Assembly (NCBI GenBank): GCA_964597545.1
Contig: CAZQXN010000003.1
Span: forward strand, 691-64,690
Length of the DNA stretch: 64,000 nt
Source: an uncultured Planctomycetia bacterium
GTDB lineage: Bacteria > Omnitrophota > Gorgyraeia > 1-14-0-20-64-10
Direction: 5' to 3'
Each line of letters starts with the position of its first letter. The stretch's first letter is position 1. The notes under the pieces were generated by a model. It ran no database searches, was not told the DNA's origin, and saw only the letters and a list, made by a program, of their open reading frames with translations. Position numbers and translations under genes: made by a program. This document shows positions 3,227 through 64,000 of the stretch, piece by piece.

Positions 3227-3420
3227 TCATGCTGACCAAGCAGGCGGTGGAGGAATTTCGGGAGATTTACCGGCGGCGGTACGGCGTAAGCCTGCCAGAA
3301 GCCAAAGCCTCGGAAATAGCGGCGAATCTCCTGAACCTCTACCGCTCTGTCTATGGGGAGGCCAATATGAAAAGGAATATGGAAAATGAACAACCTGAAA
3401 GAACAGATCAAAAACAGTAA
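3223..3420 (+). CDS. small hypothetical protein (65 aa)
   Basis: ATGA overlap with the upstream ORF and overlaps the primase start; helical composition. Could be a translationally coupled small gene. Confidence 0.3.
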   Translation: MIMLTKQAVEEFREIYRRRYGVSLPEAKASEIAANLLNLYRSVYGEANMKRNMENEQPERTDQKQ

Positions 3421-8302: not shown

Positions 8303-8707
8303 ATGGCCTTTAGGTCAGGTGGTTATACACTACTGAACAAAGACAAGGTTCCTCCGGCATGGATTAAGCTCTTTGAGCAAGCATGGGAACGACTTCATAA
8401 TTTCGACGATCTCCACAACAAACAATGCACGGTTGTATTCGCCATTGGAGGAAAGCTCGTTGTTGATTTGGTGATTAAAGAGCGTATTGCCGAATATTGG
8501 AGAGACCTGATCGTCTATAACGTCGAAAAGATGCAGGGCAAAACCAACAAAGAACTTGAGGTCATTTTCCTGGAAGAGCTTGTCCACTGTTTCTTCGATT
8601 CGCTTGACGAAACCGCTGTTTCCCTCTTGGTTGCTTCCCAAATTCCCGGAATCAGCTTCGACCTCAAGACGAGGCAGTATGTAACTCAAACTGGTGGCTC
8701 GAAATGA
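8303..8707 (+). CDS. hypothetical protein (134 aa) upstream of and overlapping the recombinase start
   Basis: ORF sharing ATGA with the recombinase start, so an operon with the HTH and recombinase is likely. Confidence 0.45.
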   Translation: MAFRSGGYTLLNKDKVPPAWIKLFEQAWERLHNFDDLHNKQCTVVFAIGGKLVVDLVIKERIAEYWRDLIVYNVEKMQGKTNKELEVIFLEELVHCFFDSLDETAVSLLVASQIPGISFDLKTRQYVTQTGGSK

Positions 8708-10724: not shown

Positions 10725-10822
10725 GATTATGGCGTTCGGTAACCGGGCTACCATTATCAGGTCCCTCAGTTTTGCGTCCCTGGGTTTCCCCAGGTTTGCC
10801 TTTATCGCTCACCCAATTGTCA
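10725..10822. repeat. direct repeat copy A (~100 bp) containing hairpin CCTGGGTTTCCCCAGG
   Basis: Core tttgcgtccctgggtttccccaggtttgcctttatcgctcacccaattgtca matches 12193..12243 with a few substitutions. Weaker similarity extends ~50 bp further upstream. Confidence 0.7.
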
Positions 10823-11076: not shown

Positions 11077-11643
11077 TTAGCTGTCTTTCAGTGTAACGGT
11101 AAGGTGGGCGGGATGAGCCCCGGCTGCCAGGTCCTGCTCTGCCTCTGCCCGCCAAGAGACAGTCAGGGTGCCGTTCAAAACCCTGGCCTGGTTACCGGTA
11201 GTTACTCCCTTGTCTGCCAAGGGGGTTAACTCATCCTCGATCTCCAGAAATCCCCCTCCAGACTCAATTAAGATGATGTTGCCGGCACTGCCCTCATTGG
11301 TAAAGCTGCCCACATCGGCTTGAACCTCTATATCCTCAAGCTCAGAACCAAGGCTTGCCGAGACCACCCCTTCCAGGGAGCTGGTTGGCAGACCATTGCC
11401 CTTGAGGCGGTAATTGACGACTTGGGTATTGGTCAGGGCGCCTTCAATGGGATCTTCAAAGGTGAGCGTAAAGTCGCCGGTATCATCAGTGATAGAGAGG
11501 GGGGCCTTAGGCACTGAAATGGAGACAGAGTGGGTCGCTTGATCGGTATCGGCAGCTGCCACCCCGGCCAAAGCCAAAAGCAGGCTTAAGGCCAGAGTGG
11601 CCTGCCTTCTTACCCCACCCATCCATCTGGAGGCTTGTTTCAT
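11077..11643 (-). CDS. secreted hypothetical protein (188 aa, signal peptide, Thr/Ser/Gly-rich beta-type composition)
   Basis: Signal peptide LALSLLLALAGVAAA, followed by its own terminator. A paralog fragment lies at 10225..10425. Confidence 0.6.
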   Translation of the reverse strand: MKQASRWMGGVRRQATLALSLLLALAGVAAADTDQATHSVSISVPKAPLSITDDTGDFTLTFEDPIEGALTNTQVVNYRLKGNGLPTSSLEGVVSASLGSELEDIEVQADVGSFTNEGSAGNIILIESGGGFLEIEDELTPLADKGVTTGNQARVLNGTLTVSWRAEAEQDLAAGAHPAHLTVTLKDS

Positions 11644-12139: not shown

Positions 12140-12243
12140 GCGTATGACTCGTTTGGTTTCGGCGGCCGGGCTGCCACGTGAGAGGCCCCATAGCTTTGCG
12201 CCCCTGGGTTTCCCCAGGTTTGCTATTATCGTCCCAATTTGTT
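12140..12243. repeat. direct repeat copy B (~100 bp) containing hairpin CCTGGGTTTCCCCAGG
   Basis: ctttgcgcccctgggtttccccaggtttgctattatcgtcccaatttgtta matches copy A. Lies upstream (minus-strand sense) of the excisionase-like gene. Confidence 0.7.
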
Positions 12244-16792: not shown

Positions 16793-18247
16793 TTAGCCCA
16801 CATCGTTGTAAGTGCGTACGCGAAAATTCACCTTGAGCTCCTCTGTGGCCACGCGGCGGACCGCCTCTAAGTCCACACCCGGAACTGCCACTGCTGTAAT
16901 CCCGGTCTTGAGCCTCGCGGCTTTACATTCCCGGACAAAGACCTTTATGGCATCGTAAGCCGCCTCCCCAAAGGTAGGCCGGCACATCTGAAGATACTGC
17001 TTAGGGTCTGCCGTATTGAGGCTCACCGATACTTCATCCACCACTGCGGCCAGCTCCGGGGCCACAGACCTGCGATGAATCAGATTACCATGGCCGTTGG
17101 TATCTAAGCGGATTCTCCGAGCCCCCTGTTCCTTGAAGCGCCGACCCGCCGCCAGGAGCGCCTCCAGCCGAAGCAGTGGCTCTCCATAGCCGCAGAAAAC
17201 AATCTCCTCGTAACGGGACGGGTCGTTGACCTCCGAAAAGATTTGGTCCACCGAAGGATCCCGCTCCATCTTCAAGTGGTGCCCCTTCACAAAGGGAGCG
17301 CGCCCCTTGCCTGTCTTAAAATCCTCAGTACTCAAGGCGCAGAAAACGCACCTTCCGGTGCAGGCGTTGGTGAGATTCACATAGAGGGAATTGCGGATAA
17401 CATAAGTGGCTTTTCCCTGGGCCGGGGCCGGACCCATCCCAAAAAGGGCGTGGGCATTGACGGTGGTGACCCGGGCAACATCCTCCAGGGTCACCCCATG
17501 CAGCTGGGCCAAGGCTTCGGCCAGGCTTTTAAGAAAAGCAGGCTCGTTGCGCTTGCCGCGGCAGGCTTGGGGAGCCAGATAGGGCGCATCGGTCTCCAAG
17601 AGGATACGGTCTAAGGGGATTGCCTGGGCCACCGAACGGAGGGCCTTGGCCTTGGGAAAGGTGAGATTTCCCGCAAAGGAGATGTACAGCCCTAGGTCAA
17701 GACCCCGACGGGCTGTCTCCAAATCACCCGAAAAACAGTGCAGCACCCCCCGGAGTGGGGGATTGGAAAATTTCGAGAGCAGCGCAAAGAGGTCCTGGTG
17801 GGCGCGTGCCCCGCTCCAAGGGACCTGGCCGCCAGCTGTCCCGGCCTCATCATTGCGGCAGTGCAGGATGACCGGAAGATCCTGCTCATGGGCAAGAGCC
17901 AGAAGCTTACGCAAAAGATCCTGCTGGAGCGGCACCGGGGTCAAGTGGCGATGGTAATCCAGGCCAATCTCCCCGATCGCCACCACCTTCTCCTGGGCCG
18001 CAAGGGATGCCAGGGACGCGAGCACATCGCCGCTCACCTTGTCCGCCTCGTGAGGATGGACCCCGACGCCGGCATAGAGCTGAGGGTGCTTGCCGGCCAT
18101 GGCGGAAACCGCTTGGGCCGATTGCAAATCGGTCGCGGCAAGGAGCAGGGCGACGACACAGGCGGCTTCCGCCCGCGCCAACACCTCATCCCGGTCCGGA
18201 TCAAACTTAGGGTCTTGAAGATGGCAGTGGCTGTCAATCAGCTGCAT
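16793..18247 (-). CDS. fusion of TatD-family metal-dependent hydrolase (N) and TatD-associated radical SAM protein (C)
   Basis: N-terminus QLIDSHCHLQD...VGVHPHEA...EIGLDYHR (TatD). C-terminus NLTNACTGRCVFCA (CxxxCxxC radical SAM). Start moved to MQLIDSH. Confidence 0.75.
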   Translation of the reverse strand: MQLIDSHCHLQDPKFDPDRDEVLARAEAACVVALLLAATDLQSAQAVSAMAGKHPQLYAGVGVHPHEADKVSGDVLASLASLAAQEKVVAIGEIGLDYHRHLTPVPLQQDLLRKLLALAHEQDLPVILHCRNDEAGTAGGQVPWSGARAHQDLFALLSKFSNPPLRGVLHCFSGDLETARRGLDLGLYISFAGNLTFPKAKALRSVAQAIPLDRILLETDAPYLAPQACRGKRNEPAFLKSLAEALAQLHGVTLEDVARVTTVNAHALFGMGPAPAQGKATYVIRNSLYVNLTNACTGRCVFCALSTEDFKTGKGRAPFVKGHHLKMERDPSVDQIFSEVNDPSRYEEIVFCGYGEPLLRLEALLAAGRRFKEQGARRIRLDTNGHGNLIHRRSVAPELAAVVDEVSVSLNTADPKQYLQMCRPTFGEAAYDAIKVFVRECKAARLKTGITAVAVPGVDLEAVRRVATEELKVNFRVRTYNDVG

Positions 18248-18304
18248 GGCAGAGTAGATTTCTTTTACAGACAAGATGCATGGTTACGAATCATTTAGTA
18301 TACT

Positions 18305-30805: not shown

Positions 30806-33277
<2,472 letters not shown>

Positions 33278-33443
33278 TCCCCCTAATGATAAATTCCAAT
33301 AAATAGGATGCTCACAGCTGCTTACCGGATTCGGATAGAGAAACTCAGCGTCTATTATCCCATAAACCCCTGATGCGCCAAGGGGATTTTGAAGAGAGAG
33401 AGGCTTTGTAACCCGTTATGGAATGGTCTGTTAGGAAATTCTA

Positions 33444-34493
33444 CTACAAAGATTCCCGCAGGAGCTGTGCCCGCCGGGAATCTCGCTCAGCCGGGCTTAG
33501 GGGGCGACCTTCCAGCTTCTGAAGGTGTGCCGGCTGTGTTTGGATGAAGAGTTGGTTGACCAAACCGCGCTTGAGGTTGGGGATGATGGCCAAATCCACC
33601 CCAAGCCGAACCAGGGAGAGCATCCCCACGGTCTCATTGGAGGTGATCAGGTGTGCTGACTTCAAGGTACCGTAGGCGCGCCAGATCCGATCCTCCAGGG
33701 CTTCCCGACTCTTCTGGAGGAGGGCGCGGCGCGCAGCCTCCTCCTGCTCAATAACCTGCTGGATGAGCCGCTCCAGATTATCTAAGATCTCTTCTTCGGA
33801 GAGGCCCAAACTCACCTGGTTGGACAGCTGAAAGAAGTTGCCGGTTGCCTCGGTCCCCTCCCCGTAGAGACCGCGTGCAGTCAAGCCCAGCTTGGAGATG
33901 GCATGCAGGACCCTATTGATCTGCTTGGTCATGACCAAGCACGGCAGGTGCAGCATACAGGAAGCTCGCATGCCGGTTCCGATATTCGTCGGGCAGGCAG
34001 TCAGATACCCCCAGTCAGACTCAAAGGCATAGGAGAGCTTGCTCTCGAGCTCGGTATTGACCTGCGAAAGCATTGCCCAAGCCTCTTGAAGATTGAAACC
34101 AGACTGGAGCACCTGCAGGCGCAGGTGGTCCTCCTCGTTGATCATCAGTGCCATGATCTCTCGATCGCTGATCACCGTCCCCTTGGAGGCAGCTGCGTTC
34201 CCTAAGGCATGCTCCCGGCTGATCAAGTGGCGCTCCACGAGAAAGAGCCGATCCAGCTCTGAAAGGACCTCCATCTTGAGAATCAAAGAGCCTTTCAGAA
34301 ATTTGCTGGCTTTGACCGCGGCAATGACCCCTTCAAGGGTCTGGCGGCGCTCGCTGGGGTTGCTGCGTTGGTAAAATCGGCAGCGGGCGAGATTCCGGGC
34401 CAAGCGAATCCGGGAAGACATGACGATCTCCCCGTGCGGTCCACCCCCGCGCAGCCATTCGCCGGTCTGTGTTACGAGATCGTTAAGCGTCAT
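33444..34493 (-). CDS. mcsB: protein arginine kinase McsB (ATP:guanido phosphotransferase)
   Basis: Phosphagen-kinase C-terminal domain motifs (EEDHLRLQVL, CPTNIGTGMRAS). Confidence 0.8.
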   Translation of the reverse strand: MTLNDLVTQTGEWLRGGGPHGEIVMSSRIRLARNLARCRFYQRSNPSERRQTLEGVIAAVKASKFLKGSLILKMEVLSELDRLFLVERHLISREHALGNAAASKGTVISDREIMALMINEEDHLRLQVLQSGFNLQEAWAMLSQVNTELESKLSYAFESDWGYLTACPTNIGTGMRASCMLHLPCLVMTKQINRVLHAISKLGLTARGLYGEGTEATGNFFQLSNQVSLGLSEEEILDNLERLIQQVIEQEEAARRALLQKSREALEDRIWRAYGTLKSAHLITSNETVGMLSLVRLGVDLAIIPNLKRGLVNQLFIQTQPAHLQKLEGRPLSPAERDSRRAQLLRESL

Positions 34494-42393: not shown

Positions 42394-42477
42394 GGTTCGG
42401 TACCTGGTTCGGTACCTGGTTCGGTACCGGGTACATTGTACCCGGTACAATGTACCCGGTACCGGTTTTGGGTATGG
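42394..42477. repeat. GTAC-palindromic repeat family A, copy 2 (3x GGTTCGGTACCT tandem + 41-bp palindrome + GGTTTTGGGTATGG tail)
   Basis: GGTACCGGGTACATTGTACCCGGTACAATGTACCCGGTACCGGTTTTGGGTATGG abuts the secA stop codon. Confidence 0.8.
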
Positions 42478-45351: not shown

Positions 45352-46468
45352 CTAAGCCTTTCCGGCTTTGCGCTGGGCTGACCAGCGCAAGGCTGCATCC
45401 AGGAAGAGGTCCAGCTCCTCACCGTCCAAGACCGCCTGGGTCTTTCCGGTCTCGGTGCCGGTGCGGTGGTCCTTCACCATCTGATAGGGCTGAAGCACAT
45501 AAGAGCGGATCTGACTGCCCCATTCAATCTTCTGTTTTTGGGCATGGGCCTGCGCCACTTTCTCATCGCGTTTTTTTCGCTCCAACTCATGCAAACGGGC
45601 CTTGAGCACCTTAAGGGCAGAGGCCTTGTTCTTGATCTGAGAACGCTCATTCTGGCACTGCACAACAATCCCGCTGGGCAAGTGGGTTACCCGTACCGCC
45701 GAATCGGTGGTGTTGACCCCCTGGCCCCCGGGCCCGCTGGCACGATAGACATCTACCCGGAGGTCCTTTTCCTGGATATCGATCTGGATCTCATCGGAGA
45801 TCTCCGGGATCACATCCACCGCCGCAAAGGAGGTGTGCCGCCTGCGGTTGGCGTCAAAGGGGGAAATCCTAACCAGCCGGTGCACCCCTGCCTCGCCCTT
45901 AAGCGAACCATAGGCGTAGTCGCCCCGGATGATTAGAGTGGCCGATTTGATTCCGGCCTCTTCGCCGGCCAAATAATCGATGACCTGTGGTGAGAAGGCC
46001 TTGGTCTCTGCCCAGCGGGAGTACATCCGAAACAGCATTGACACCCAGTCGCACGATTCGGTCCCCCCGGCGCCTGCGGCAATCGAGAGGATGGCTGGGT
46101 TCGGATCCATCTCATCCTGAAACAGGGTCCGATGTTCAAGCTGGCCGGCGGTCTTACCCAGGGCCTCCAGCGCCGCCTTCATCTCCGCCCTGGCTGCCGC
46201 ATCCTCCGGGTCGATCAAGGGGTTGAGCTCCTCCAAGGTTTGAAGCTCAGACCAGGCGGCGCGCCAGGGCTCGGCAACGGATTTAAGCCGTTTGAGCTCC
46301 TGGACGGTAACCTTGGCTTTATCTTGATCGTCCCAAAAACCTGGAGTGGCTAGCGATGCTTCAAGGGTTTGAATCCTGGACTCGGCTGAATCCAGGTCAA
46401 AGATACCCCCGAAGGTTTTGAAGGGTCTTTCGAAGGGCTGCGAGCTGCGCCGTAATCGATTCGAGCAT
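45352..46468 (-). CDS. prfB: peptide chain release factor 2 with programmed +1 ribosomal frameshift (shift site at 46397..46402)
   Basis: Frame 1: ATG at 46468 giving [23 protein letters not shown], then in-frame TGA inside CGG GGG TAT CTT TGA C. The +1 frame continues [10 protein letters not shown]...FWDDQDKA...SPF...GGQ. Confidence 0.9.
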
Positions 46469-46520: not shown

Positions 46521-46567
46521 CTTGGTACCGGGTACATATGTACCCGGTACCGGTTTTAGGTGTGGGG
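46521..46567. repeat. GTAC-palindromic repeat family A, copy 3 (28-bp perfect palindrome + tail)
   Basis: GGTACCGGGTACATATGTACCCGGTACC GGTTTTAGGTGTGGGG immediately followed by the stop codon of the 1466-aa gene. Confidence 0.85.
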
Positions 46568-49500
46568 TTACGCCAGCTCCTCTAACCAGCCAGCCAAGCG
46601 CTCGAGGTTAACTCGCTCGGCCACTGTTTTGGGAAGTAGACCGCTCATATTGGAGAGGAGCTTTTGAAGGACCTGCGCGAAGGCAGCCTGGCCTGCAACA
46701 TAGGTATCTGCAACTGTGACCAACGCTTTTTTGGCTTGGACCTTAAAACGCGCCGTCCACTCCTTGAAACCATAGACAAAGACAGTCCGGACACCTTGAC
46801 CAATGAGGCGCACAAGGGTCTGGTCGATATCGGGCTCGGCAACCATCACCCCTTCTTCAAGCCCCGCCAGCGCCTTTAAGCCCGGGTGCTGTCCCAAACC
46901 CGGCCCGATCAGATGAATCGCACCGGTATCTGCTCTGGGCAACTCTTGCAGTTCATCACGCACCCGCTCCTCCTGGCCGGCCTGCTCCGGCCCCAGCAAA
47001 TCATCAGCGGTAATCTCCGGGAAATGACGAACAACACTATAAGAAAGATCCATCGGCAGGGCTGCGGTATTCTCAACAAAGGCCATCTCCCCATTGGCCC
47101 TCACCACAAAGAAAGTCTCCGGCCCTGTCATCTCACTAAAGTCGCCATAGCCTCCCAGCGGAGTAGGAGTCCCGGCATCCTTTCTGACCATGAGGCCCGA
47201 TGCGTATCCCTCGGGTTGCTCGCTGTAGAGCTGGATGGTCTCTGTCTCCCCCTCCTGCAATACCCTCCTCAGCACAGTAATTCCTGCTCCATTGGAAAGG
47301 CGGCAATCCCTTCCGAGTGGATTCCTGACCCTTAAGTCATTTAATCCCATGACCTCTCGATACCGGCGGATCAGCGCCAAGAGCTGCTGCTCGTCATAGA
47401 GTCTGGCCAAAGGAATCCGTTGATCCGTGGCGGCCGCTGCAATCCTCATGCTGCCCTGTTGGCGAGCAAGCTCTAGAATGGTTCTGTCGGTGATGGTCTG
47501 AACAGTCAAATGCTGAACCGACAACACAGCCCCCAAGAAGGGAATGAGATTAAACAAAAAGACTTGCTGCGGCGTCACGATAGGGGGCTGAGGCGGAGCG
47601 TTCACATCCCAGTAGAGGTAACTGAGATCCCTAAACCGAAGCGAGGCCCTTTCCAACTGCAAGCTCAGTTTTTCCCCCGACCCAAAGAGAGTGCGGGCAA
47701 ACTGCTCAAATGGAGGTCGCTCTGTCCCTGCGGTCTTAAACCAGGTTACTGTGAGTTCTCGCGCAAAGAAATCAACGGCTGCAATTCGATCTTCAATCCT
47801 CTGCTCCTCCGGAGACAACGCCTGCTCCTCCAGACCGGTGCGATCGGCTGTAGCAACTTCTCCTCTCCCTGAATCCACCGAGGCATCTTCCCTTGGGAGA
47901 TCCGGCTCCGGCGCCTCATCGTCACTCCTGTCAAAATCAGAGGGGGGAGTCGTGGCGATGGCGGCAAGGGCGGTAAGAACAAACAGGGCGTTTGTCTGCT
48001 CTTCGGTTGCAAAGGGCACCTCTGGAGCTACAAACCGCGCCTCAACAAACGGATAAGCGGAGACTTGGGTTGGCATCTGATAAGATCGGTCTCCCCGGTT
48101 GAATCTGAGGTTAGCCGCCTCACCCGCAGGCATCGGTATCCCTCGAGTCACGAATTTGCTCATTGCCGTAGGGGTAAAAGTCTCGGGGACGCTAACGGCG
48201 AAAGCATCCTTTTCTGTGGCGTCGCCCTCTATTTGATAGCGGACCCACACAAAAATAAGCCCCCGAAGAGAAGTGTCGTCTCCCTGATACCTGTAAAAAA
48301 CGCGGCCCCCTTCCCGGGGAAAAGAAGAGGCGTGCAGCTCGCGCAACAATCTTGGCACCGGATCCGCCTCGTCTATACCGAAACCCAATCCGAGAGGGAT
48401 CGTCTCAAGGTCAAATTGGCCCTCTGTGATGGCCTTGCTCTGATCAATAACGCCATCGATCAACTCCTGGAAACGATCCTCTTCCACCGGCCCATGCAGT
48501 GAAAAATCAACGGCATTCTCCTCCAGCCCGGTCCCGTGCATTTTCAGATCGCTCGGCAAAACCAGTTCGACAAAGCGAACGTTCCAGTGTGATGCAACTA
48601 TTGGGAACCCGCTTTCCTCGCGCTGGTATGCCTCTAAAGTCGCATGCCTCCCACTCCCCCATGGCAGAACAAGGCGCCCACCTATGGCAAGCTGCCTACC
48701 CAGTGCATCCCGGGCTTCGAGATTGGGCGTAGCGGCAAAGGCAATGACAGCGTCAAAGAGCCCCTCATCCGGAAGGCCTAAGATTTCAGGGTCGCTTCGG
48801 CGGACCTCAACATTCCCGAAGTCTGCCAGTTTCCGAGCCGCATCCTGAGCGATCTCTGGATCCACTTCCAGGGCAATGACCCGGTTATCCCAATTTGGAC
48901 GCAAAAGTTCAAGATACCGGCTTAAGATGGCCGAAGAATAGCCGGGTCCTGCGCCAACCACCAAAATCCTTAAGGGTCTATCCTGGGCCAAGCTGCCGGT
49001 TCCCTCACCGTACAGTTGAGGCGGAACAGCTTGGTAAACCATCCAAGCAATCAGAGAGGGTAGGGTCACAGGTCCCTTGATGCCGTAATCGCTCCCGAAG
49101 GAATCGCGAAAGCTCTGTCCTGGGACAAAGTGTCCTCGGTCAACCTGCCGGAAAGCTTGCTCCAATGCTGGCGGCAATTCGGGTGCCCTGTCGCGCTTCA
49201 TCGCTCTCTGAAGGAGATCGATAAAGTGATCCTCTAGAGTCGGCCGCCCCTCCTCCAGGCCAGCTTTGGGCTCGGCTGAGGGACCGGAAGTGGTCGGACC
49301 AGCTTCGAAAAGGGGCGTTTCCCCCTCACGAAGCAGAAAATTCTTGATCTTTCGCTGTGCCAGCTCATTCTCGGCGGCGGCAGCTGATCCATCGTAGAGG
49401 ACAATCCCCTCAGGCCGAATGCCGACCCCGCTCACCTTAACCCACAAGAAACGGGAATTCCTGAAAGGTTTCCACTGATCATGCGCATTCATGATAACGC

Positions 49501-50968
49501 TGCCGTGAAAGCCGGGTTCCGGCTCAGCTCCTCCTTCTTCGAACGCCACGGATAGCGTCAGGTGCTCGGCCACTTCATGCAGCGTTACCCAAACCAGCCG
49601 TTCATCCCGGCGGAAAAGGTTAATGGCTGTCATCAGAACATCGACCTGCCCCGCAATGTCCTCGGAAAGCGCAAGGGCTGGGAGGGAAAAAGTGTGCTGC
49701 GTCCCTTGGCCCACGGTGCTGCTCACCCCTTCAAAGTCTCCCCCTGCCCCATGGACAATAGAGCGGATTATCCCCATCCCCCTGCCATGCCCACGAGCTT
49801 TTTCGCCGTCCTTGGTGGTAAAGGGCACCCCAGCCAGCAACCGCTGCAGGGTCTCCGGCTCCATGCCGCCGGCCTCATCAGAAACCTCCAAGCGAACGCT
49901 CCCCTCCTCGCCCCTGCTGAAAACAGCCCGAAAGGGGTTGCCTTTTCTTCCGTTTTCCTTCGCCGCGCGTGCGGCATTGTGGGCAAGGTTGTTGAGGACC
50001 TCATAGAGGCGGACCGGATCGATCCAAACATCAGGGGTATCTGGAGCTGCCAAGCACTCCACTTGAAGAGGCTGGCTGGATGGGGATGATTGAAGAATCG
50101 CTTCCATCTCCCCGGCAAACTGAACCAGGTCCACCCGCCTCGGTGTGCCCACCGGATCAAATCGGCCCCGCCGGTCAACAAAGTTGCGATGCAGCTGCTG
50201 AATCACGACATGGTGGATAACAAAATTCCGCGCCAACTGTCCCACCGGATGTGACAAGCCGGCGATGCGCACCTGATGGGTACGATGGATATGCCCCATG
50301 ACGAGAATGGCTCGGTCACTCAGCTCTTCCACCATCCGGCCAACTCGATGCTCTGTTTCGACGAGGCGCCGGCCAAGCTCATCGGCGCCCAAGCCTGCCA
50401 TGCCGTTTTCGATAGGCCAGGGTCTCGTCAAATTGCCCCACTCCTGCATATCGTCCACGAGCCTATCGTAAATAACGGTGTATCGCCGCATCGCCTCCCA
50501 GTTATCCATCTCCCGGATCTGTTCGGTTAAAGCAGCCCGAACCCCTGCAATTCTATTCAATTCGTTGCCCATGTCATGCAGAAGGTTGTCCAGTTGATCC
50601 ATATAGACCCAAACCGCCTGCTCGTCCCAGGTCTGCCCATCTGCCGAAACAGGACGATCGGCCGCCGCCTCATCTTGACTCGATGCCTCCTCCAATCCGA
50701 CCTGGAGCAGCTTGTGCAGTTCGCCCACAGCGGTATCTTCCTGGGGTTCGCGCAGGGTCCCTCGATCAAGCTGAGGATAGGCTCCGGCCGGGCTAGGCAA
50801 CCCAAGGCTCAGCGCCAACAAAAGGGCCAAGCATCTGGGCAAAAAAAGGCGTTTGAGTGTCAGATGGAGGCAGGCTCCGCCGTTCCTATTCATATAAGTA
50901 AGTTTACCTGATGGAAGGAGATATCGCCAAGGGTATAATTGGCTTTGTATTGCTACTAATTCAGCCAA
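46568..50968 (-). CDS. very large multidomain protein (1466 aa): signal peptide, possible degenerate metallophosphoesterase-like region, GHKL/HATPase_c domain, protein-L-isoaspartate O-methyltransferase (PCMT)-like domain, ~600-aa C-terminal region of unknown function
   Basis: HATPase: N-box LNNLAHNAARAA, G1 SDEAGGM, G2 GHGRGMG. PCMT: RGHFVPG...PSLIAWMV...ILVVGAGPGYSSAIL...NVEVRRSDPE...FDAVIAFAATP...GGRLVLPWG. GHIHRTH resembles the metallophosphatase GHxH motif. Confidence 0.65.
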   Translation of the reverse strand: MAELVAIQSQLYPWRYLLPSGKLTYMNRNGGACLHLTLKRLFLPRCLALLLALSLGLPSPAGAYPQLDRGTLREPQEDTAVGELHKLLQVGLEEASSQDEAAADRPVSADGQTWDEQAVWVYMDQLDNLLHDMGNELNRIAGVRAALTEQIREMDNWEAMRRYTVIYDRLVDDMQEWGNLTRPWPIENGMAGLGADELGRRLVETEHRVGRMVEELSDRAILVMGHIHRTHQVRIAGLSHPVGQLARNFVIHHVVIQQLHRNFVDRRGRFDPVGTPRRVDLVQFAGEMEAILQSSPSSQPLQVECLAAPDTPDVWIDPVRLYEVLNNLAHNAARAAKENGRKGNPFRAVFSRGEEGSVRLEVSDEAGGMEPETLQRLLAGVPFTTKDGEKARGHGRGMGIIRSIVHGAGGDFEGVSSTVGQGTQHTFSLPALALSEDIAGQVDVLMTAINLFRRDERLVWVTLHEVAEHLTLSVAFEEGGAEPEPGFHGSVIMNAHDQWKPFRNSRFLWVKVSGVGIRPEGIVLYDGSAAAAENELAQRKIKNFLLREGETPLFEAGPTTSGPSAEPKAGLEEGRPTLEDHFIDLLQRAMKRDRAPELPPALEQAFRQVDRGHFVPGQSFRDSFGSDYGIKGPVTLPSLIAWMVYQAVPPQLYGEGTGSLAQDRPLRILVVGAGPGYSSAILSRYLELLRPNWDNRVIALEVDPEIAQDAARKLADFGNVEVRRSDPEILGLPDEGLFDAVIAFAATPNLEARDALGRQLAIGGRLVLPWGSGRHATLEAYQREESGFPIVASHWNVRFVELVLPSDLKMHGTGLEENAVDFSLHGPVEEDRFQELIDGVIDQSKAITEGQFDLETIPLGLGFGIDEADPVPRLLRELHASSFPREGGRVFYRYQGDDTSLRGLIFVWVRYQIEGDATEKDAFAVSVPETFTPTAMSKFVTRGIPMPAGEAANLRFNRGDRSYQMPTQVSAYPFVEARFVAPEVPFATEEQTNALFVLTALAAIATTPPSDFDRSDDEAPEPDLPREDASVDSGRGEVATADRTGLEEQALSPEEQRIEDRIAAVDFFARELTVTWFKTAGTERPPFEQFARTLFGSGEKLSLQLERASLRFRDLSYLYWDVNAPPQPPIVTPQQVFLFNLIPFLGAVLSVQHLTVQTITDRTILELARQQGSMRIAAAATDQRIPLARLYDEQQLLALIRRYREVMGLNDLRVRNPLGRDCRLSNGAGITVLRRVLQEGETETIQLYSEQPEGYASGLMVRKDAGTPTPLGGYGDFSEMTGPETFFVVRANGEMAFVENTAALPMDLSYSVVRHFPEITADDLLGPEQAGQEERVRDELQELPRADTGAIHLIGPGLGQHPGLKALAGLEEGVMVAEPDIDQTLVRLIGQGVRTVFVYGFKEWTARFKVQAKKALVTVADTYVAGQAAFAQVLQKLLSNMSGLLPKTVAERVNLERLAGWLEELA

Positions 50969-59750: not shown

Positions 59751-61589
59751 TTAAGCAGCCCTCAGGCGGGCAAGCAACCGCTCCAGGGCAACCAACGCGT
59801 TGGTTGTGGGTGTGACGCCGGAGAGATTGGTGACGAGCTGCTGGAAATACGGTCTAAAGGCCTGCTGCTCCTGGAGGGTGAGCTCCCGGACATCCAACTC
59901 CATCGCCCGGGCAATCCCAAGAAAAACATCCAGGCGGAGGTCTGAATCCTGCCGGGAACCATACCCCCGTACCACTGTTCTGCGCGCTCCGCTTTGACTG
60001 AACTGCTCTATCAGCAGGTTCTGCATCTGCTCTCTGGTCTCAGGGACAGCAACCAGGGTGATACTTCCGATGGAGACGGGGCCGGCCCGCAATCCTTCCA
60101 GGAAGGGGTTGCCTGAAATCGCCTGAGGGGAGACAGCAACCAGATGGTGTGCTTTGAGGTCAGCCAGTTTCCACCGGCTTGCGAGATCCCGGAGTGACTG
60201 GGGCTCTCCTTCCAAGCGGGTTGGCGTTTCGAGGGCAGCACCGTCCTCCCCCGGGCCGGAGGCATCAAAAACCAACGCACCGGAACCAGACATTGGGGCG
60301 GACAAGTCACTCAGGGTCACTGCTGCCTCTTCAACCCGTTCCTCCAGCCCAACAAATTCTCCTCCCTCCGCATCCATCAGAGGTTCAACCAACAACGCAT
60401 AGGGGGTGGCTTGTGCGCTAAAGGGATTGATAAGGGCAACATTAAATCGACTATCATTAATATTCGTACGAGCCCAACGCGGCAAGCGACTTTCAAGCGC
60501 CCGAAGGAGAGCTTCCGCGGAAGCAACCTCTCCCAACAGCTGCAGAGACACATAGGGTGGAGCGCCAGGGGCAAAAGCTTTCACGGGTGCTTGCCATGGA
60601 TAGGCTGCTGCAGGCTCATTTGGAGCAACCACCCAAGCCTCCTTTAATCTTTCAGGATCCCCCTGAAGAAGCGTCTTAATAGCACTCCAGCTCACTCCTC
60701 GCATGGGAGCTTCAAGAAGCTGAGCCTTGGGATATGTTTCCAGGACAGACTCAAATGCAGCAGGAATAGGGTTGTCACTCACCAATCGGCTGCCCATTTG
60801 AACGACCACCGTCTCTATGTGCTGTGCAGCTTCTGAGGTTACCAACCACAGATCAAACGGTTCGTCCCGCCAAACCTCTTTTCTGGGAGGAAGCCACCGC
60901 CCATACGCACGTGCAAGAGAATGCTCAAAATGCTCGGCCATCATAAGCTCTGCGGCTTCCAATCTTTCAACCAGTCCTTCAGGAGAAACCAAAACAACTT
61001 CCCCGGGGGAATGCTCCTGAACAAATGCGTGTAGATCTCTACCGACCACCCAACGCTTTCGGCTTACCCTGGAACCAGAACCGCCTGAATGAATCATCGC
61101 TCTGATTTGACGCTCGATCTTCTCCCGAGAAAGACGTCCTTCTCTCAACACATGAGGAACGCCGCCTTCCTGCAAGATCATTTTGCTTACCCGCCACAAG
61201 AATAACTCTATCCACTTCTCGCTATCCCCGCTCCAAGCAAACTCTTGCCACCGAGTCTGAATATCACGTAATTCACCAGCCATATCGGGGTTACCAGAGT
61301 TCTGATACTTTTCATACACATCGGGCCGCACTTCATCCACCAATCTGAAGGTTATCAAAACCTCAGCCAGCCACTCAACCGGTGACATGATGTCCTTGTC
61401 CTTCCCCGACAACTTAATGCCTCTGTATTCGCCGAAATCAAATACAAGCCAGCCCATGATTGTGGGCAAACCCCGGAAGAGGTGTCTGTCCCATTCTCGC
61501 CTGAAGTTTCGGTGGGTGCTTCTCGGCTCCACTCGGACTGGCCTCTTGGTATTCCAGACGGACATATTGCTTCTGTGGATCAACCTCAA
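59751..61589 (-). CDS. large hypothetical protein (up to 612 aa; real start probably internal because of a 150-nt overlap with the upstream gene)
   Basis: Long ORF in the same orientation as, and immediately downstream of, the GGDEF-motif protein. No recognisable domains. Confidence 0.5.
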   Translation of the reverse strand: MRLIHRSNMSVWNTKRPVRVEPRSTHRNFRREWDRHLFRGLPTIMGWLVFDFGEYRGIKLSGKDKDIMSPVEWLAEVLITFRLVDEVRPDVYEKYQNSGNPDMAGELRDIQTRWQEFAWSGDSEKWIELFLWRVSKMILQEGGVPHVLREGRLSREKIERQIRAMIHSGGSGSRVSRKRWVVGRDLHAFVQEHSPGEVVLVSPEGLVERLEAAELMMAEHFEHSLARAYGRWLPPRKEVWRDEPFDLWLVTSEAAQHIETVVVQMGSRLVSDNPIPAAFESVLETYPKAQLLEAPMRGVSWSAIKTLLQGDPERLKEAWVVAPNEPAAAYPWQAPVKAFAPGAPPYVSLQLLGEVASAEALLRALESRLPRWARTNINDSRFNVALINPFSAQATPYALLVEPLMDAEGGEFVGLEERVEEAAVTLSDLSAPMSGSGALVFDASGPGEDGAALETPTRLEGEPQSLRDLASRWKLADLKAHHLVAVSPQAISGNPFLEGLRAGPVSIGSITLVAVPETREQMQNLLIEQFSQSGARRTVVRGYGSRQDSDLRLDVFLGIARAMELDVRELTLQEQQAFRPYFQQLVTNLSGVTPTTNALVALERLLARLRAA

Positions 61590-64000
61590 GCTCTGCGGTT
61601 ACATCTTTGTCGTCCCCCGCCCATTCTGAGAATCCCATCAAGCTGCGCTCCCATTGATCAGCAGGCGTCGCTCCACCCCTGGGAAGATGGATGCGCTTAG
61701 CATGTAAAAGGAGCGTCCACAACTCCTCCCGCGCCTTCTCCAGAGCATAGGCAGAACGTCTTTGAAAGAGGGGAGTTGCATCATTTGCCTCCTCCAAGCC
61801 AGCGCCATCTTCACGCTCCCCCCCATCTGCCGACTCGTCTTCTGGGATGCGTTCGAGTTGAACCGATGCTTCTACCAGCTCCATGTCCGGCGTGCGCACA
61901 TAATTCCCGGCCAGCGCCGCCCCGGCAGCCTTGAGCAGATCCCTGCGGCTCATGCGAGAGATCCGCCCTTCCTCCAGGCCCGAGGGGGAGGGACGGATCT
62001 CCATCAACTTCCTTGCGTTCCGCCATGCTGCACTATCCACCTCTGCGGGGTACGGCGGATGGCCCAGGGGAAATATCTTCGCTCTATATTCCCGGAGCCC
62101 GCCCCCTGGCCTGGCTCGGTAATCATTGCCGTAGGCCCGAACGAATAACTCGCGGAGTTTTTTACCAGGATGCTCTTCCGGGATTAAATCAGCGCCCTCT
62201 GCTTCAACAACCTGCCGCCCTTCAAGCAAGTGGAATCTCATCGTTTCCATCGGGTAGCGCCTAATCGCTTTGAGAAGGTCCCCTGCGACTGCAGCGCCTA
62301 TAGTCTCCATGGGCTTAGGAGCTATAACCTCAGGGCCCTCATCGGTTTCCTCTTGGCCAGCTGTGGGTGCGCTGCCGGACAGACCAAGGAGAAAGGGGTG
62401 TGTGGAGGGAGCCGCCGGAGCCGCGTGGGGTGCATCCAGCCTGTAGGCAGGTTCGCGCTGGGTACCGGTTATCCCGAGGACAAGCCGGGCCTCTGCTTTT
62501 GCGCGATTGAGAAATCCTCTCTCCAGCCTTACCCTGGCCGCATCGATCTGGTCGCCGGTGACACCCGTTTCAATCGGATCAAAGAGAAAACCGTACTCCT
62601 GCCCCTCGGCAAGCTTTGGGTGATGCAAGAATCCAACCCTCTCTGGAGGGTTCTTCTGGCTGGAGCGCAGGTCTTGAGTGACCATAAGCGCGGCATCCAA
62701 CCGTTGGAAGTGGCGCGCTGCTCCAGCGTCATCGCGCTCCAGATCTGAAACCACCCCCGCCCAGTCCAGATGAACGCGAATGCCAAAGGGAGCAAATGCA
62801 TCGGTGACATAGCTGTCGAGATATTGGTTTGCTTGCGCTCGTGCCCGCTCGACCCGCTGCTCAATGGCTTCTCGCAACCGGATCCACGCCAGCTTTTCAT
62901 CAGGAGCCGGCAATGGCTTCCCCTCACCTTTTCGGTGGGGCCACCGCAGGTGAACTCGAATGACATCGGCAGAGATCGCCGGAGGAGCCCGGGAGACGGT
63001 CACCTCGAGCTGCTGATCCTCAAAAGAGAAACCCTTAAAAGCATCATGAGCGACCGCCAGGAGCAGCATGATCATGTTATCGCCGGCCTTGTAGGACTTG
63101 TCGTTGAGCCCTTTGAGACGCATGTTGCCGTGCTCGTCTCTATGCCTCTGCTGTGCCCCAGACGCCCAGCGGTAACCGGGACGTATCTCGACCGTAACGC
63201 TGGAATACCCCGCCTCGAAATCGTCGTATACCTGCTCGCGCACCTGTTCGGGCGGAAAATTTTGGAGCAGAACCGCGTCTCCTGAAATCTGAGGCGATAC
63301 GGTGAGCAACGATTTGCCCCCGTGGACATGGGTATTGACCTTCAGACCATCCCCAACGGCAACCGCATTCTTCCACCGGGTCGCGGTCTTGGCCTCGGCC
63401 AACCAATCATCGGCATTGAAGCGAAGGCGCTCATACTGCTCGAGGTTAAGCGCATCCTTATCCAACCTGCTGATCACCTGAGCGCCCAGGGAAACGGTCA
63501 CCGGAAACTGTTTAGGCTTCTCTCGTTCCCCTTTATGCAGCAAACCAAAGACCCCGTTATTGCCTTCAATCCGAAGCGGCTGCGGCTTGCCCAACCCCTG
63601 CTCTGCTGCCTTGGCCTGCAGATCCGGCAGAATGGCCAGGGGATCCTCGCGCTCTTCCTCCGGCACCTCCAGAAGATAGAGGGTTCTACCGGCATATTGC
63701 TCCTCAGCACGTCTCCTTGGCCAATATTCCGCGGGCAGATGTGAACGCTCTCCTTTGGCGAAGTTCTGAATAACGATGTAGCGGTTCTGAAATGCCTCCG
63801 CGACGCTCTGGAGAATCTCTTCGAGCATTGCATGGGCCTCGGTGGTCAGATCGGCCTCATCGGCAACGACATCGGACAGCGGCACCAAACAGGCGAATTC
63901 ATCTCCGCCGTGGCGGTAGATGATGCCGCCTCGCTTCTCAACCTCTCTTTTCAAGATGATGAAGATCTCCGCTAAGACCGGATTGACGATCCTCTTGGAG
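61438..64000 (-). CDS. large protein with an N-terminal GGDEF-like (nucleotide cyclase palm) motif and a long uncharacterized C-terminal region; 5' end beyond the right window edge
   Basis: In-frame translation continues past the track start with no stop up to the window edge (SKRIVNPVLAEIFIILKREVEKRGGIIYRHGGDEFACLVP). The RHGGDEF motif lies about 30 aa from the window edge, so the domain must start outside the window. Confidence 0.6.
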   Translation of the reverse strand, partial: SKRIVNPVLAEIFIILKREVEKRGGIIYRHGGDEFACLVPLSDVVADEADLTTEAHAMLEEILQSVAEAFQNRYIVIQNFAKGERSHLPAEYWPRRRAEEQYAGRTLYLLEVPEEEREDPLAILPDLQAKAAEQGLGKPQPLRIEGNNGVFGLLHKGEREKPKQFPVTVSLGAQVISRLDKDALNLEQYERLRFNADDWLAEAKTATRWKNAVAVGDGLKVNTHVHGGKSLLTVSPQISGDAVLLQNFPPEQVREQVYDDFEAGYSSVTVEIRPGYRWASGAQQRHRDEHGNMRLKGLNDKSYKAGDNMIMLLLAVAHDAFKGFSFEDQQLEVTVSRAPPAISADVIRVHLRWPHRKGEGKPLPAPDEKLAWIRLREAIEQRVERARAQANQYLDSYVTDAFAPFGIRVHLDWAGVVSDLERDDAGAARHFQRLDAALMVTQDLRSSQKNPPERVGFLHHPKLAEGQEYGFLFDPIETGVTGDQIDAARVRLERGFLNRAKAEARLVLGITGTQREPAYRLDAPHAAPAAPSTHPFLLGLSGSAPTAGQEETDEGPEVIAPKPMETIGAAVAGDLLKAIRRYPMETMRFHLLEGRQVVEAEGADLIPEEHPGKKLRELFVRAYGNDYRARPGGGLREYRAKIFPLGHPPYPAEVDSAAWRNARKLMEIRPSPSGLEEGRISRMSRRDLLKAAGAALAGNYVRTPDMELVEASVQLERIPEDESADGGEREDGAGLEEANDATPLFQRRSAYALEKAREELWTLLLHAKRIHLPRGGATPADQWERSLMGFSEWAGDDKDVTAELEVDPQKQYVRLEYQEASPSGAEKHPPKLQARMGQTPLPGFAHNHGLACI

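Follow-up and report, generated by a model that had tools for sequence, protein, structure and literature searches.

Results

The window, as we call the whole 64,000-nucleotide stretch of DNA analyzed, carries on its minus strand an open reading frame of 1466 codons at positions 46568..50968, with its first TTG at 50968. We use X as shorthand for this ORF and its protein; all features within X are given on the minus strand. The genes around it lie in the order uvrC-ogt-X-prfB-secA, as a preliminary description of the sequence had stated. The SecA protein encoded in this cluster is 67 to 74% identical to proteins from Omnitrophota metagenome-assembled genomes (MAGs), and the source organism is a Candidatus Omnitrophota bacterium of a high-GC lineage. 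Translation likely starts at the ATG at 50893 (M26), which gives a CDS at 46568..50893 and 1441 aa; the identical NCBI protein (P0001) is a 1441-aa product that matches this start, and homologous leaders of related proteins likewise begin about 10 to 20 aa ahead of the hydrophobic core. GC content by codon position is even in each 150-codon interval (GC1, about 0.66; GC2, about 0.44; GC3, about 0.60), so X is one unbroken coding frame. The single ORF of the preliminary description is therefore intact, and the frameshift that it had considered is excluded. A perfect 28-nt palindrome with a 14-bp stem (46524..46551) lies 17 nt past the stop codon and is probably a transcript-end hairpin separating X from prfB.

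The top hydropathy segment of X is a predicted Sec-type signal peptide (aa 26-63, MNRNGGACLHLTLKRLFLPRCLALLLALSLGLPSPAGA|YPQ; 50780..50893), with the cleavage site set by the A-x-A rule. It is the single N-terminal hydrophobic segment, and hydropathy along the protein gave no second transmembrane (TM) segment. It aligns with the leaders of a protein family, being a subgroup variant, PAGA|YP...LR, of the family leader LP[NS]PA[FW]A|LRP; this supports the earlier view of X as a secreted or membrane-anchored protein. The mature leader segment that follows (aa 70-94, GTLREPQ...VGLEE; 50687..50761) holds the invariant LR and junction motif 1 (GLEE, 50687-50698), and in the leader alignment (A5) A, L, R, and G-x-E are invariant. 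The family leader is present in 12 further Omnitrophota proteins, and 32 metagenomic loci have head ORFs with LP[SN]PA[WF]ALR; the shortest of these ORFs has 101 aa and the longest exceed 2045 aa, and of the 25 unique ones 16 are longer than 700 aa. The census was seeded by pattern searches, and family numbers are lower bounds. X is acidic, and its Cys content is 0.27%, compared with about 0.1% for the family and 1.1% for the other proteins of the window. Of the 28 complete family proteins, 22 have Ala as their last residue, against a background of 6.8% (P = 5e-21); X ends in ...RLAGWLEELA-COOH.

The N-terminal helical region (aa 95-316; 50021..50686) had no homologue in the database search, and the AF2 model of the N-terminal part, which is unreliable (mean pLDDT, 41), shows long helices. 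In this low-confidence model an H-box-like GHIHRTH (50276-50296) sits in the last helical hairpin ahead of the ATPase. The longer string VMGHIHRTH is part of a predicted helix. It precedes the stretch aligned to kinase catalytic domains by about 55 aa, a position at which the H-box of a histidine kinase would be expected. It had been read as a degenerate metallophosphatase motif, a reading that we reject, as Metallophos gave no match at E<=1. The HATPase_c (GHKL) ATP-binding domain follows (aa 317-431, 49676..50020; Pfam E value 3.7e-14, 53.6 bits against a cutoff of 26.4). Alignment to CA domains in the PDB (ZraS, FixL, WalK, and HK853) places the N box at 49961-49999, the G1 box at 49862-49882, and the G2 box at 49772-49792. 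All three had been called clear, and all are present, G1 as DEAGG, in which Ala takes the place of the first Gly. Pfam searches of X matched neither HisKA/DHp nor a receiver domain, in line with the preliminary description, and no response regulator adjoins X among the annotated neighbors. The next region (aa 432-569; 49262..49675) ends in a Pro/Ser/Thr-rich linker; it has no Pfam or NCBIfam match and a low-confidence AF2 model.

A PCMT-like class I SAM methyltransferase domain occupies aa 602-803 (48560..49165; Pfam E value 6.7e-15, 55.9 bits against a cutoff of 20.3) and aligns to 1R18, 1JG1, and 3LBF. SAM motifs I (48932-48964), II (48725-48757), and III (48656-48682) are present, but the substrate-serine motif region (49037-49069) is 2 residues short at the place where protein-L-isoaspartate methyltransferases (PIMTs) have T-I-S-A-P, and the domain scores 58 against 188 bits and 41.5 against 159 bits at the NCBIfam equivalog cutoffs. 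HMM annotation thus places both HATPase_c and PCMT above their Pfam thresholds and all the peptide strings cited earlier occur in X; the methyltransferase, which had been called complete, lacks the PIMT substrate-serine motif.

Large parts of the roughly 600 aa behind the methyltransferase lack Pfam matches, as had been noted, and most modules of the family have no recognizable fold. Module A (aa 818-1044; 47837..48517) has none; it matches aa 64-288 of P0004, a protein of 1618 aa encoded at a different locus, with 46% identity. Module B (aa 1049-1330; 46979..47824) consists in the AF2 model of a helical domain at about aa 1053-1210 and a low-confidence stretch; it is homologous to P0003/L001 (30 to 38% identity) and P0006 (27%). 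The family C-terminal domain (aa 1331-1466; 46571..46978) is common to X, P0003, P0004, P0005, P0007-P0010, L110, and L113. AF2 predicts for it a four-strand alpha/beta (flavodoxin/Rossmann-like) fold, with block-mean pLDDT values of 75 to 90 over most of the domain, and the PDB gave no significant fold match.

The modules are bordered by a short junction motif, P-A-A-G-[LAM]-E-E, which is enriched about 100-fold in the family: 38 family proteins (37,893 aa in total) contain 176 copies of its relaxed form, whereas its density in other ORFs (432,729 aa) is 0.039 per 1000 aa. X itself contains five G-L-E-E strings (about 0.07 expected). Motif 2 (K-A-G-L-E-E, aa 570-573; 49250..49261) stands directly ahead of the methyltransferase module. 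Motif 3 (T-G-L-E-E, aa 814-817; 48518..48529) is where the block shared with P0004 begins, and motif 4 (T-G-L-E-E, aa 1045-1048; 47825..47836) is the border of modules A and B. Motif 5 (A-G-Q-E-E, 46967-46978) forms the first residues of the C-terminal domain, and a further A-G-L-E-E (46853-46864) lies inside that domain. The borders of homology coincide with the motifs. In both proteins the block X 812-1048/P0004 64-288 has a motif at either end, as does a second block, P0009 506-696/L009-X 173-361. Around motif 4, phmmer starts its P0003 block at aa 1047 and BLAST its P0006 block at aa 1055, although the BLAST alignment with P0003 reaches weakly back to aa 1009, past the motif. A motif is no more than 6 aa away from 38.5% of the 169 internal BLAST endpoints; with motif positions randomized, this share is 6.5%, and the highest value among 1000 permutations was 14%.

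The flanks of X are collinear with those of relatives, and the order murJ-uvrC-ogt-[X]-prfB-secA is kept in L003, L005, L006, and L009, so the earlier gene order holds for the flanks; the content of the slot between ogt and prfB is hypervariable. The slot protein varies from 448 to 1566 aa among relatives, and the slot is empty in L008. Slot proteins resemble each other only in the leader and junction motifs and, for the pair L006 and L009 alone, in the C-terminal domain; those of L003 and L005 end in Pro and lack that domain. The pairing of HATPase_c with PCMT is not conserved: relatives have mosaics of ARMT1, WD40, GNAT, and HATPase or of three HTH domains, a methyltransferase, ROK, and HATPase, and elsewhere small ORFs without domains or nothing. 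Divergence is steep even against L001, a near-identical strain (SecA, 96.5% identical). Its DNA is 89.8% identical from lnt until 9 codons before AGQEE, with no identity past that point; at the protein level high identity is limited to the last 145 aa or so (81% in the C-terminal domain), falls to the 30 to 38% given above in module B, and is undetectable upstream. Two large ORFs adjoining secA in other Omnitrophota (L016 and L026) contain no junction motif.

X is a singleton protein cluster from a MAG. A full-length search of 5.8 billion sequences returned X as its sole match and no full-length ortholog, and an exhaustive search of 1.84 billion representatives with the C-terminal 663 aa gave nine matches, one module each. 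The plan of leader, motifs, and C-terminal domain was found again in independent assemblies from several projects, and across the family the cargo includes ARMT1-like, WD40, GNAT, HATPase_c, three HTH, MTS, ROK, 2-Hacid_dh, PP2C, N_Asn_amidohyd, and HEAT domains.

Discussion

We propose, with a probability of roughly 55% for the reading as a whole, that X belongs to a clade-specific family of cassette-built, predicted exported Omnitrophota proteins and is itself a Sec-exported, rapidly recombining cassette-mosaic cargo protein, perhaps an effector and perhaps processed at its junctions. In the family plan, a conserved predicted signal peptide with the cleavage region LP[NS]PA[FW]A|LRP or PAGA|YP...LR is followed by one or two P-A-A-G-[L/A/M]-E-E motifs, then by a variable run of unrelated modules with Pro/Ala-rich linkers that each close with a junction motif, and in many members by an alpha/beta C-terminal domain of about 140 aa with a terminal Ala. 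The cargo of X consists of the helical region together with an ATP-binding domain of the histidine-kinase type, a segment of unrecognized fold, the PCMT-like methyltransferase lacking the PIMT substrate-serine motif, and two further modules of unrecognized fold. The ogt-prfB interval would be a recombination hot spot, in which the ends are conserved and the cargo is exchanged at junction motifs.

We infer that X is exported via Sec. The conserved, predicted cleavable leader and the depletion of Cys point to export and away from cytoplasmic ATP and SAM; the hydrophobic N terminus could equally not serve export, as ATP- and SAM-binding domains behind a signal peptide are a paradox. Because the enzyme modules need ATP and SAM, X may serve a host- or prey-associated lifestyle as an effector that is delivered or secreted, or as a polyprotein that undergoes processing, and not have a housekeeping role in sensing or repair. 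Next to X we found no genes for a secretion system or for immunity and no toxin domain. A host- or prey-associated lifestyle has been reported for Omnitrophota, and RNA of an Omnitrophota predator was detected within dead archaeal prey cells (PMC13153191).

A possible refinement, which we hold tentatively, is that exported X is cut at each P-A-A-G|L-E-E, so that the module proteins are freed. The junction, P(-4)-A(-3)-x-G(-1)|L(+1), resembles the predicted site of the leader, P-A-F-A|L-R-P, and the motifs stand in Pro/Ala-rich linkers right at module borders. The protease could be signal-peptidase-like or tail-specific, recognizing C-terminal Ala; the terminal Ala of 22 of the 28 proteins is the type of end recognized by Prc/Tsp-type proteases. 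However, signal peptidase I normally requires a membrane-embedded h-region, the annotated parts of the window showed no protease gene, and the motif is not solely an interdomain cleavage site, because some copies sit within the folded C-terminal domain. An earlier proposal had giant proteins of Omnitrophota cut by proteases, with cleavage points reported as unknown (10.1101/2023.11.21.568195).

We consider it unlikely that the N terminus of X is an uncleaved anchor and that the enzymes act, as a membrane-bound scaffold, in the cytoplasm of the producer. HATPase_c, SAM methyltransferase, GNAT, ROK, and HTH modules do need cytoplasmic cofactors or DNA, and the reported majority class of the Omnitrophota giants, 46% of those with 10 kaa or more, is predicted to be TM-only with the bulk in the cytoplasm (10.64898/2026.06.07.730766). 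Yet positive charges, a hydrophobic core, and then a conserved small-x-small site are the arrangement of cleaved Sec signals, with N-in/C-out topology; the cleavage region is conserved far beyond what an anchor requires, and Cys is reduced 4- to 10-fold.

The preliminary description had suggested a dedicated bifunctional enzyme, in which a histidine-kinase-like sensor controls or is coupled to isoaspartate repair or methylation. Both domains are there, with nucleotide- and SAM-binding motifs mostly intact and the H-box-like H-I-H-R-T-H about 55 aa ahead of the kinase-aligned stretch, but this coupling is very improbable: we found no ortholog in which the two domains stay together, the genes in syntenic positions encode other modules, HisKA, a receiver, and a neighboring response regulator are all absent, the methyltransferase has lost the PIMT serine motif and scores far under the equivalog cutoffs, and X carries a predicted export signal. 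Just as improbable is a chimeric MAG assembly, several genes run together, or a nonfunctional ORF, for although X is a MAG-derived singleton with a GC3 (0.60) below that of the adjacent housekeeping genes (0.67 to 0.76), the 4.4-kb frame has an even coding signature, the flanks are collinear, the family plan recurs across independent assemblies, inspection showed no start codon at Shine-Dalgarno spacing after the motifs, and GGAGG occurs 16 times against 15.9 expected by synonymous resampling.

Several known systems resemble X in part. Like two-component histidine kinases (HisKA plus HATPase_c), it has N, G1, and G2 boxes alignable to CA domains and a helical hairpin with a His-x-x-R-T string ahead of them, but it lacks a HisKA match, a second TM segment, HAMP or a sensor arrangement, and a receiver or response-regulator partner, and the whole domain sits behind a predicted cleavable signal peptide. 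With Pcm/PIMT and the RiPP PCMT-like O-methyltransferases (TIGR04188 and TIGR04364) it shares the class I SAM fold and PCMT motifs I to III; it differs in the gap at T-I-S-A-P, in falling far under the equivalog cutoffs, and in being embedded in a mosaic, and there are no RiPP genes near X.

Closer are the long and giant multienzyme proteins of the same phylum ("Archaeovorin-type"; "Module 1" with methyltransferase, HATPase_c, GNAT, and HAD; West-Roberts et al. 2023, 10.1101/2023.11.21.568195; 10.64898/2026.06.07.730766), which likewise join many unrelated, normally cytoplasmic enzyme domains on one polypeptide, have a signal peptide (SP) or TM segments, and are mostly unique in sequence. Methyltransferase, HATPase_c, and GNAT domains occur together on long Omnitrophota proteins, 94% of which have an SP or TM (10.64898/2026.06.07.730766). 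The preliminary description knew of no described family with the architecture of X; exactly as it stands it is unique in the databases searched, but the co-occurrence of methyltransferase and HATPase_c on long Omnitrophota polypeptides was reported earlier (bioRxiv 10.64898/2026.06.07.730766, section 8). The giants have at least 10 kaa, whereas X has 1.4 kaa and a predicted signal peptide only, without a TM array. The family leader and junction motif appear to be previously undescribed: term searches of 10.1101/2023.11.21.568195 and 10.64898/2026.06.07.730766 found no mention of an LPNPAFALRP-type leader, P-A-A-G-L-E-E, the shared C-terminal domain, or a uvrC/ogt-prfB hot spot.

Polymorphic toxins and MARTX-type effectors differ from X, which has a Sec-type leader and a different junction motif and lacks RTX repeats, a cysteine protease domain, a known toxin domain, and a downstream immunity gene. 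The likeness to them is a functional analogy only: conserved trafficking ends, exchanged central or cargo modules, steep cargo divergence among near-identical strains, and possibly processing between modules.

A variable gene between ogt and prfB

The gene X lies on the minus strand at 46568..50968, and its product carries a HATPase_c and a PCMT-like domain. Candidatus Omnitrophota MAGs, some of them labelled 'uncultured Planctomycetia', have SecA proteins 67-74% identical to that of the window, and a diderm envelope is indicated by LptE, a BamD-like protein, MurJ, and Lnt. The surroundings of X are as they were given in the preliminary description, namely, uvrC, ogt, X, and prfB; the ogt-like gene has 98 aa, and secA lies beyond prfB. 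The order murJ-uvrC-ogt-[X]-prfB-secA-lnt is conserved in related genomes, with X itself variable or missing. Among the Omnitrophota loci compared, the X protein of L003 has 1327 aa with ARMT1-like, WD40, GNAT, and HATPase_c domains, and that of L006 has 1566 aa with three HTH domains, an MTS methyltransferase, ROK, and HATPase_c_2. Those of L005 (448 aa) and L009 (515 aa) are without a Pfam domain, and in L008, where X is absent, about 650 nt separate ogt and prfB. BLAST of X of the window against the syntenic proteins of L003, L005, L006, and L009 found no similarity, and among these four the C-terminal domain described below is common to L006 and L009 only.

When full-length X was searched against 5.8 billion sequences, it was itself the only match. 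A word-indexed search with aa 26-316 against 5.8 billion proteins gave zero matches, X itself included, and is therefore insensitive for this stretch; this type of homology search also missed known family members. An exhaustive HMMER search with the C-terminal 663 aa against 1.84 billion representatives gave nine matches, each spanning one piece only. The idea that the HATPase-PCMT fusion is a conserved unit was not borne out, as X stands alone in the full-length search and the syntenic proteins carry other cargo. The pairing of these two domains is incidental, and it is the grammar of the family that is interesting.

L001 belongs to a very close relative, with SecA, PrfB, and Lnt 96.5%, 94%, and 89% identical to those of the window, respectively. 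Its DNA is 89.8% identical from lnt to window position 47005, which precedes the A-G-Q-E-E at the start of the C-terminal domain by nine codons, and beyond this position similarity is no longer detectable. In protein sequence, identity is 81% in the C-terminal domain and 30-38% in the module before it, and nothing further upstream is related. Since so close a relative keeps the C-terminal end only, X is a hypervariable insert with conserved ends. In the more distant Omnitrophota loci L016 (1-7629) and L026 (3-8831), ORFs of >2500 aa, cut by the contig end and without the junction motif, lie just upstream of prfB/secA. In Omnitrophota generally, this neighbourhood may be where large variable genes reside.

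The junction motif

G-L-E-E occurs five times in X, at aa 91, 570, 814, 1045, and 1369, where ~0.07 copies are expected from composition, and together with A-G-Q-E-E at aa 1331 this gives six motifs of the form [AST]-G-[LAMQ]-E-E. The ends of every homology block found in X fall at or near these motifs. The PCMT module is flanked by the copies at 570 and 814, residues 64-288 of the related protein P0004 align to X aa 812-1048 and end at motifs, and the block shared with P0006 starts at aa 1055, just past the motif at 1045. The block shared with P0003 starts at aa 1047 in phmmer and runs weakly back to aa 1009 in BLAST. For the C-terminal domain, the alignments to P0008 and P0010 open no more than 5 aa from the copy at 1331, and those to P0005 and P0007 open 18-35 aa upstream of this copy.

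A set of 38 family proteins, 37,893 aa in all, contains 176 copies of the motif in its relaxed form, [ASTVG]-G-[LAVMQT]-E-[ED], with P-A-A-G-L-E-E as the consensus context and proline enriched upstream. The rate in the other ORFs of the same loci (432,729 aa) is 0.039 per 1000 aa, and the enrichment is therefore about 100-fold. Internal BLAST endpoints (n = 169) lay within 6 aa of a motif in 38.5% of cases, compared to 6.5% in a control with randomised motif positions (maximum, 14% in 1000 permutations).

The motif codons lean to GGNCTGGAGGAG, and GAG makes up 79% of the motif Glu codons versus 64% overall. A Shine-Dalgarno reading, with the motif serving in internal ribosome binding or pausing, was rejected as the main explanation, because GGAGG occurs 16 times in the ORFs versus 15.9 expected from synonymous resampling (only L009 is above expectation) and no start codon is found at proper spacing after the motifs. 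The signal therefore lies chiefly in the peptide; microhomology over short stretches of DNA at the motif may still aid recombination.

Leader and C-terminal domain

In all family members, the N terminus consists of a basic n-region and a hydrophobic core, the cleavage region that comes next is strongly conserved, and one or two junction motifs stand after it. The cleavage region reads LP[NS]PA[FW]A/LRP in most members and PAGA/[YC]P...LR in a subgroup made up of X, P0009, P0019, and P0020; in alignment A5, X conforms to the general pattern of the Sec leader, ...LP.PA.A/(..)LR and then G-L-E-E. A scan of metagenome contigs for LP[SN]PA[WF]ALR gave 32 loci, and the 25 unique ORFs in them range from 101 to >2045 aa, with 16 above 700 aa, in a census that is seeded by patterns and hence incomplete. 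Their cargo consists of MTS+2-Hacid_dh, PP2C, WD40, N-terminal asparagine amidohydrolase, or HEAT domains or has no known domain. The metagenomic loci L083-L114 are putatively assigned to Omnitrophota. On one contig (Ga0209726_10001178), two family genes (L091/L093), each reaching >2000 aa before the locus end, lie about 6.5 kb apart with near-identical leaders, which points to local duplication of mosaics. P0011 (L082 3379-3660) was discarded as an N-terminal homologue, as only a leader, two junction motifs, and the start of a module similar to X aa 46-133 are present in this 93-aa ORF, and the next gene encodes an unrelated periplasmic binding protein. P0011 looks like the leftover of a family gene.

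A C-terminal domain of ~140 aa is common to many family members, and X has it up to the final alanine. AF2 confidently predicts a four-stranded alpha/beta fold, with block-mean pLDDT values of 75-90 over most of the domain, and no significant neighbour was found in the PDB. Alignment A2 was too divergent to serve as a search profile for this domain. With alignment A3, the profile search of genome contigs of GTDB representatives recovered no relative, which indicates that the source genome is absent from the representatives scanned. The last residue is alanine in 22 of the 28 complete family proteins (X, P0003-P0010, and L084-L113) versus 6.8% of other ORFs (P 5e-21), and this suggests that the tail is read by some factor, such as a tail-specific protease or a sorting factor. 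Cysteine makes up 0.27% of X and about 0.1% of the family versus 1.1% of the other window proteins, and X is acidic and poor in lysine. Such a composition, low in cysteine, acidic, and lysine-poor, is a feature of exported proteins. Overall, the comparisons show a modular family of exported type, in which cassettes are exchanged at junctions marked by the motif and the two ends of the chain are conserved as handles.

Proposed export and possible mechanism

Omnitrophota are widespread, uncultivated, and ultra-small bacteria that are suspected of living on other cells and that encode the longest proteins known. X would be exported via Sec, with its signal cleaved. As the periplasm offers neither ATP nor SAM, X would then act outside its producer, for example, in a partner or prey cell. 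Many cargo domains of the family act on proteins (kinase-like ATPase, PCMT-like, ARMT1-like, GNAT, PP2C, and N-terminal amidase), and this suits an effector role, although the argument is circumstantial. An effector-type mechanism also fits what has been published, namely, that Omnitrophota are host dependent or predatory (PMC10066038), that macromolecules of an Omnitrophota predator were found in dead archaeal prey cells (PMC13153191), that Omnitrophota long proteins bear an SP/TM and are mosaics of enzymes in which methyltransferase, HATPase_c, and GNAT domains abound (10.64898/2026.06.07.730766), and that the cleavage points of giant multi-enzyme proteins are stated to be unknown (West-Roberts et al., 10.1101/2023.11.21.568195). 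Multi-enzyme mosaics as such are already known in Omnitrophota. No mention of the leader or the junction motif, of the alanine-ended C-terminal domain, or of the ogt-prfB hot spot was found in the literature searched, where the only matches to 'AGLEE' were irrelevant.

The most far-reaching reading, to which we give a probability of about one in four, is that the motif, P-A-A-G-[L/A/M]-E-E, marks the junctions of a new exported-protein system that combines cassette exchange by recombination, cutting after Sec export, and delivery to a host or prey cell. A protease would read the signal-peptidase-like P-A-x-G/L and/or the invariant C-terminal alanine, and one gene would deliver a changeable set of protein-modifying enzymes, including a kinase-like ATPase, methyltransferases, GNAT, PP2C, and N-terminal amidase. 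Proteolytic processing at the junctions, as a refinement of export, we put forward tentatively. The chain would possibly be cut there after export, and the junction P-A-x-G/L resembles the leader's own P-A-F-A/L site, but copies of the motif also lie inside the folded C-terminal domain, so it is not only a cleavage site. More doubtful is a cytoplasmic scaffold held at the membrane by its N terminus; X has a single N-terminal hydrophobic segment, and the family has the conserved cleavage region and the composition of exported proteins. A second transmembrane segment at aa 1136-1154 was rejected, since its hydropathy is borderline (1.75), it lies within a predicted helical domain, and homologues are not hydrophobic there; it is treated as a buried helix.

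The ATPase and methyltransferase modules of X

The Pfam HATPase_c match covers aa 317-431 (E 3.7e-14; 53.6 bits versus a cutoff of 26.4). The N, G1, and G2 boxes are seen in alignments to solved histidine kinases in the PDB, with the G1 box reading D-E-A-G-G, that is, with Ala in place of the first Gly. The domain is a CA domain of the histidine kinase type, with plausible nucleotide-binding residues. No HisKA-family match was obtained at E<=1 in Pfam. A possible metallophosphatase motif noticed earlier (VMGHIHRTH) had no HMM support in the Pfam search. Its GHIHRTH string falls in a helical hairpin in AF2, with a pLDDT of only about 40-50, and this predicted helix occupies the place expected of an H-box, about 55 aa ahead of where the alignment to kinase catalytic domains starts. 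The structure predictions rested on shallow MSAs, and the model of aa 92-575 (mean pLDDT, 41) is usable for secondary structure only. X shares HATPase_c and its boxes with sensor histidine kinases but has no receiver domain (no Response_reg match in Pfam), no response-regulator partner among the neighbours ogt, uvrC, prfB, and secA, and no canonical topology, its one hydrophobic segment being N-terminal. The HATPase_c label should not be taken to mean a two-component sensor.

PCMT (PF01135) matches aa 602-803 (E 6.7e-15; 55.9 bits versus a cutoff of 20.3), and SAM motifs I, II, and III (LVVGAGPGY, FDAVIAFAATP, and GGRLVLPWG) align to those of PIMT. The NCBIfam/TIGRFAM equivalog cutoffs for Pcm are not reached (NF001453, 58.3 bits versus 188; TIGR00080, 41.5 bits versus 159), and RiPP-type PCMT-like models match about equally well. 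In the alignment to 1R18, X has a 2-residue gap at 'TIsaPHMHA' (it reads VTL--PSLIA) and so is without the T-I-S-[AQ]-P motif. The serine of T-I-S-A-P binds the isoaspartyl substrate in PIMT structures. The module is a member of the PCMT superfamily, and the label should not be taken to mean an isoaspartate repair enzyme. The dedicated kinase-repair enzyme first proposed is very unlikely.

Coding integrity of X

That X is a single ORF with both domains was confirmed, as the frame is open without interruption over 1466 codons counted from the first TTG and both Pfam matches exceed their gathering thresholds. The product from ATG 50893 has 1441 aa and is identical to the NCBI protein P0001, a singleton, so that X measures 1441-1466 aa, depending on the start used. 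Because homologous proteins begin about 10-20 residues ahead of the hydrophobic core, M26 is the likely start. A frameshift or a run-together of separate genes was rejected, since GC at the three codon positions is steady along the whole ORF and the same plan recurs in independent assemblies; an assembly artefact is very unlikely.

Other features of the window

Just past the stop codon of X, at 46524-46551, lies a perfect 28-nt palindrome (GGTACCGGGTACATATGTACCCGGTACC), with related sequences after secA in L001 (5832-5875) and at ~42421-42463 of the window. The gene prfB starts at ATG 46468 (minus strand) and carries an RF2 programmed +1 frameshift site (...GGGGG TAT CTT TGA C, with CTT TGA C at 46402-46396), which is why the listed ORF (45352-46236) is without the N terminus. 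This type of site is classical for RF2.

Two overlapping long ORFs on the minus strand, 59751-61589 and 61438-63999, have no Pfam domain but contain G-L-E-E or A-G-Q-E-E. The former ends in ...LVTNLSGV...LARLRAA, is alanine terminated, and resembles the family C-terminal domain (hmmsearch E 0.013). The latter runs off the window, opens with the tail of a GGDEF domain (YRHGGDEF), and has an internal TAT-like RRDLLKAAGAALAG between two motifs. They are probably a second family locus and possibly one frameshifted gene.

A primase-like protein with a CHC2 zinc finger and Toprim (3386-5983, plus strand) and a large serine recombinase (8704-10374, plus strand) are encoded in the first 10 kb, which probably holds an integrated mobile element. 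Two aptamers of c-di-GMP-I-class riboswitches, one of the GGC variant type, lie on the minus strand at 10734-10809 and 12158-12234; downstream of the second, a 188-aa ORF (11077-11643) has no Pfam match. Another unusual fusion, of TatD-type DNase and radical SAM domains, is found in a single 493-aa ORF (16793-18274, minus strand). At 30806-34493 (minus strand), a ClpC-type AAA+ chaperone (823 aa) adjoins an McsB-like ATP:guanido phosphotransferase (protein arginine kinase), a pairing best known from Firmicutes.

Comparison with known systems

With its 1.4 kaa, X is a tractable miniature for the problem of how Omnitrophota organise, export, and perhaps cut their multi-enzyme chains. It displays a conserved leader, a sharp motif delimiting modules, an alanine-ended handle, and a hot spot for cargo between strains about 90% identical in DNA. 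The motif offers a way to split family proteins into modules for structure prediction, and if the same junction is present in proteins of 10-150 kaa, it would give the missing cleavage map of the giants. X is like the Omnitrophota multi-enzyme long proteins in its Omnitrophota origin, its unrelated enzyme Pfams, including a methyltransferase and HATPase_c, and its SP/TM, but these are defined as having at least 10,000 aa, far beyond the length of X. With polymorphic toxin and MARTX effectors it shares conserved trafficking ends and a cargo that varies between close strains, as seen between the window and L001. It differs from them in that toxin, RTX, and CPD domains are not matched in Pfam and the downstream gene is prfB, not an immunity gene.
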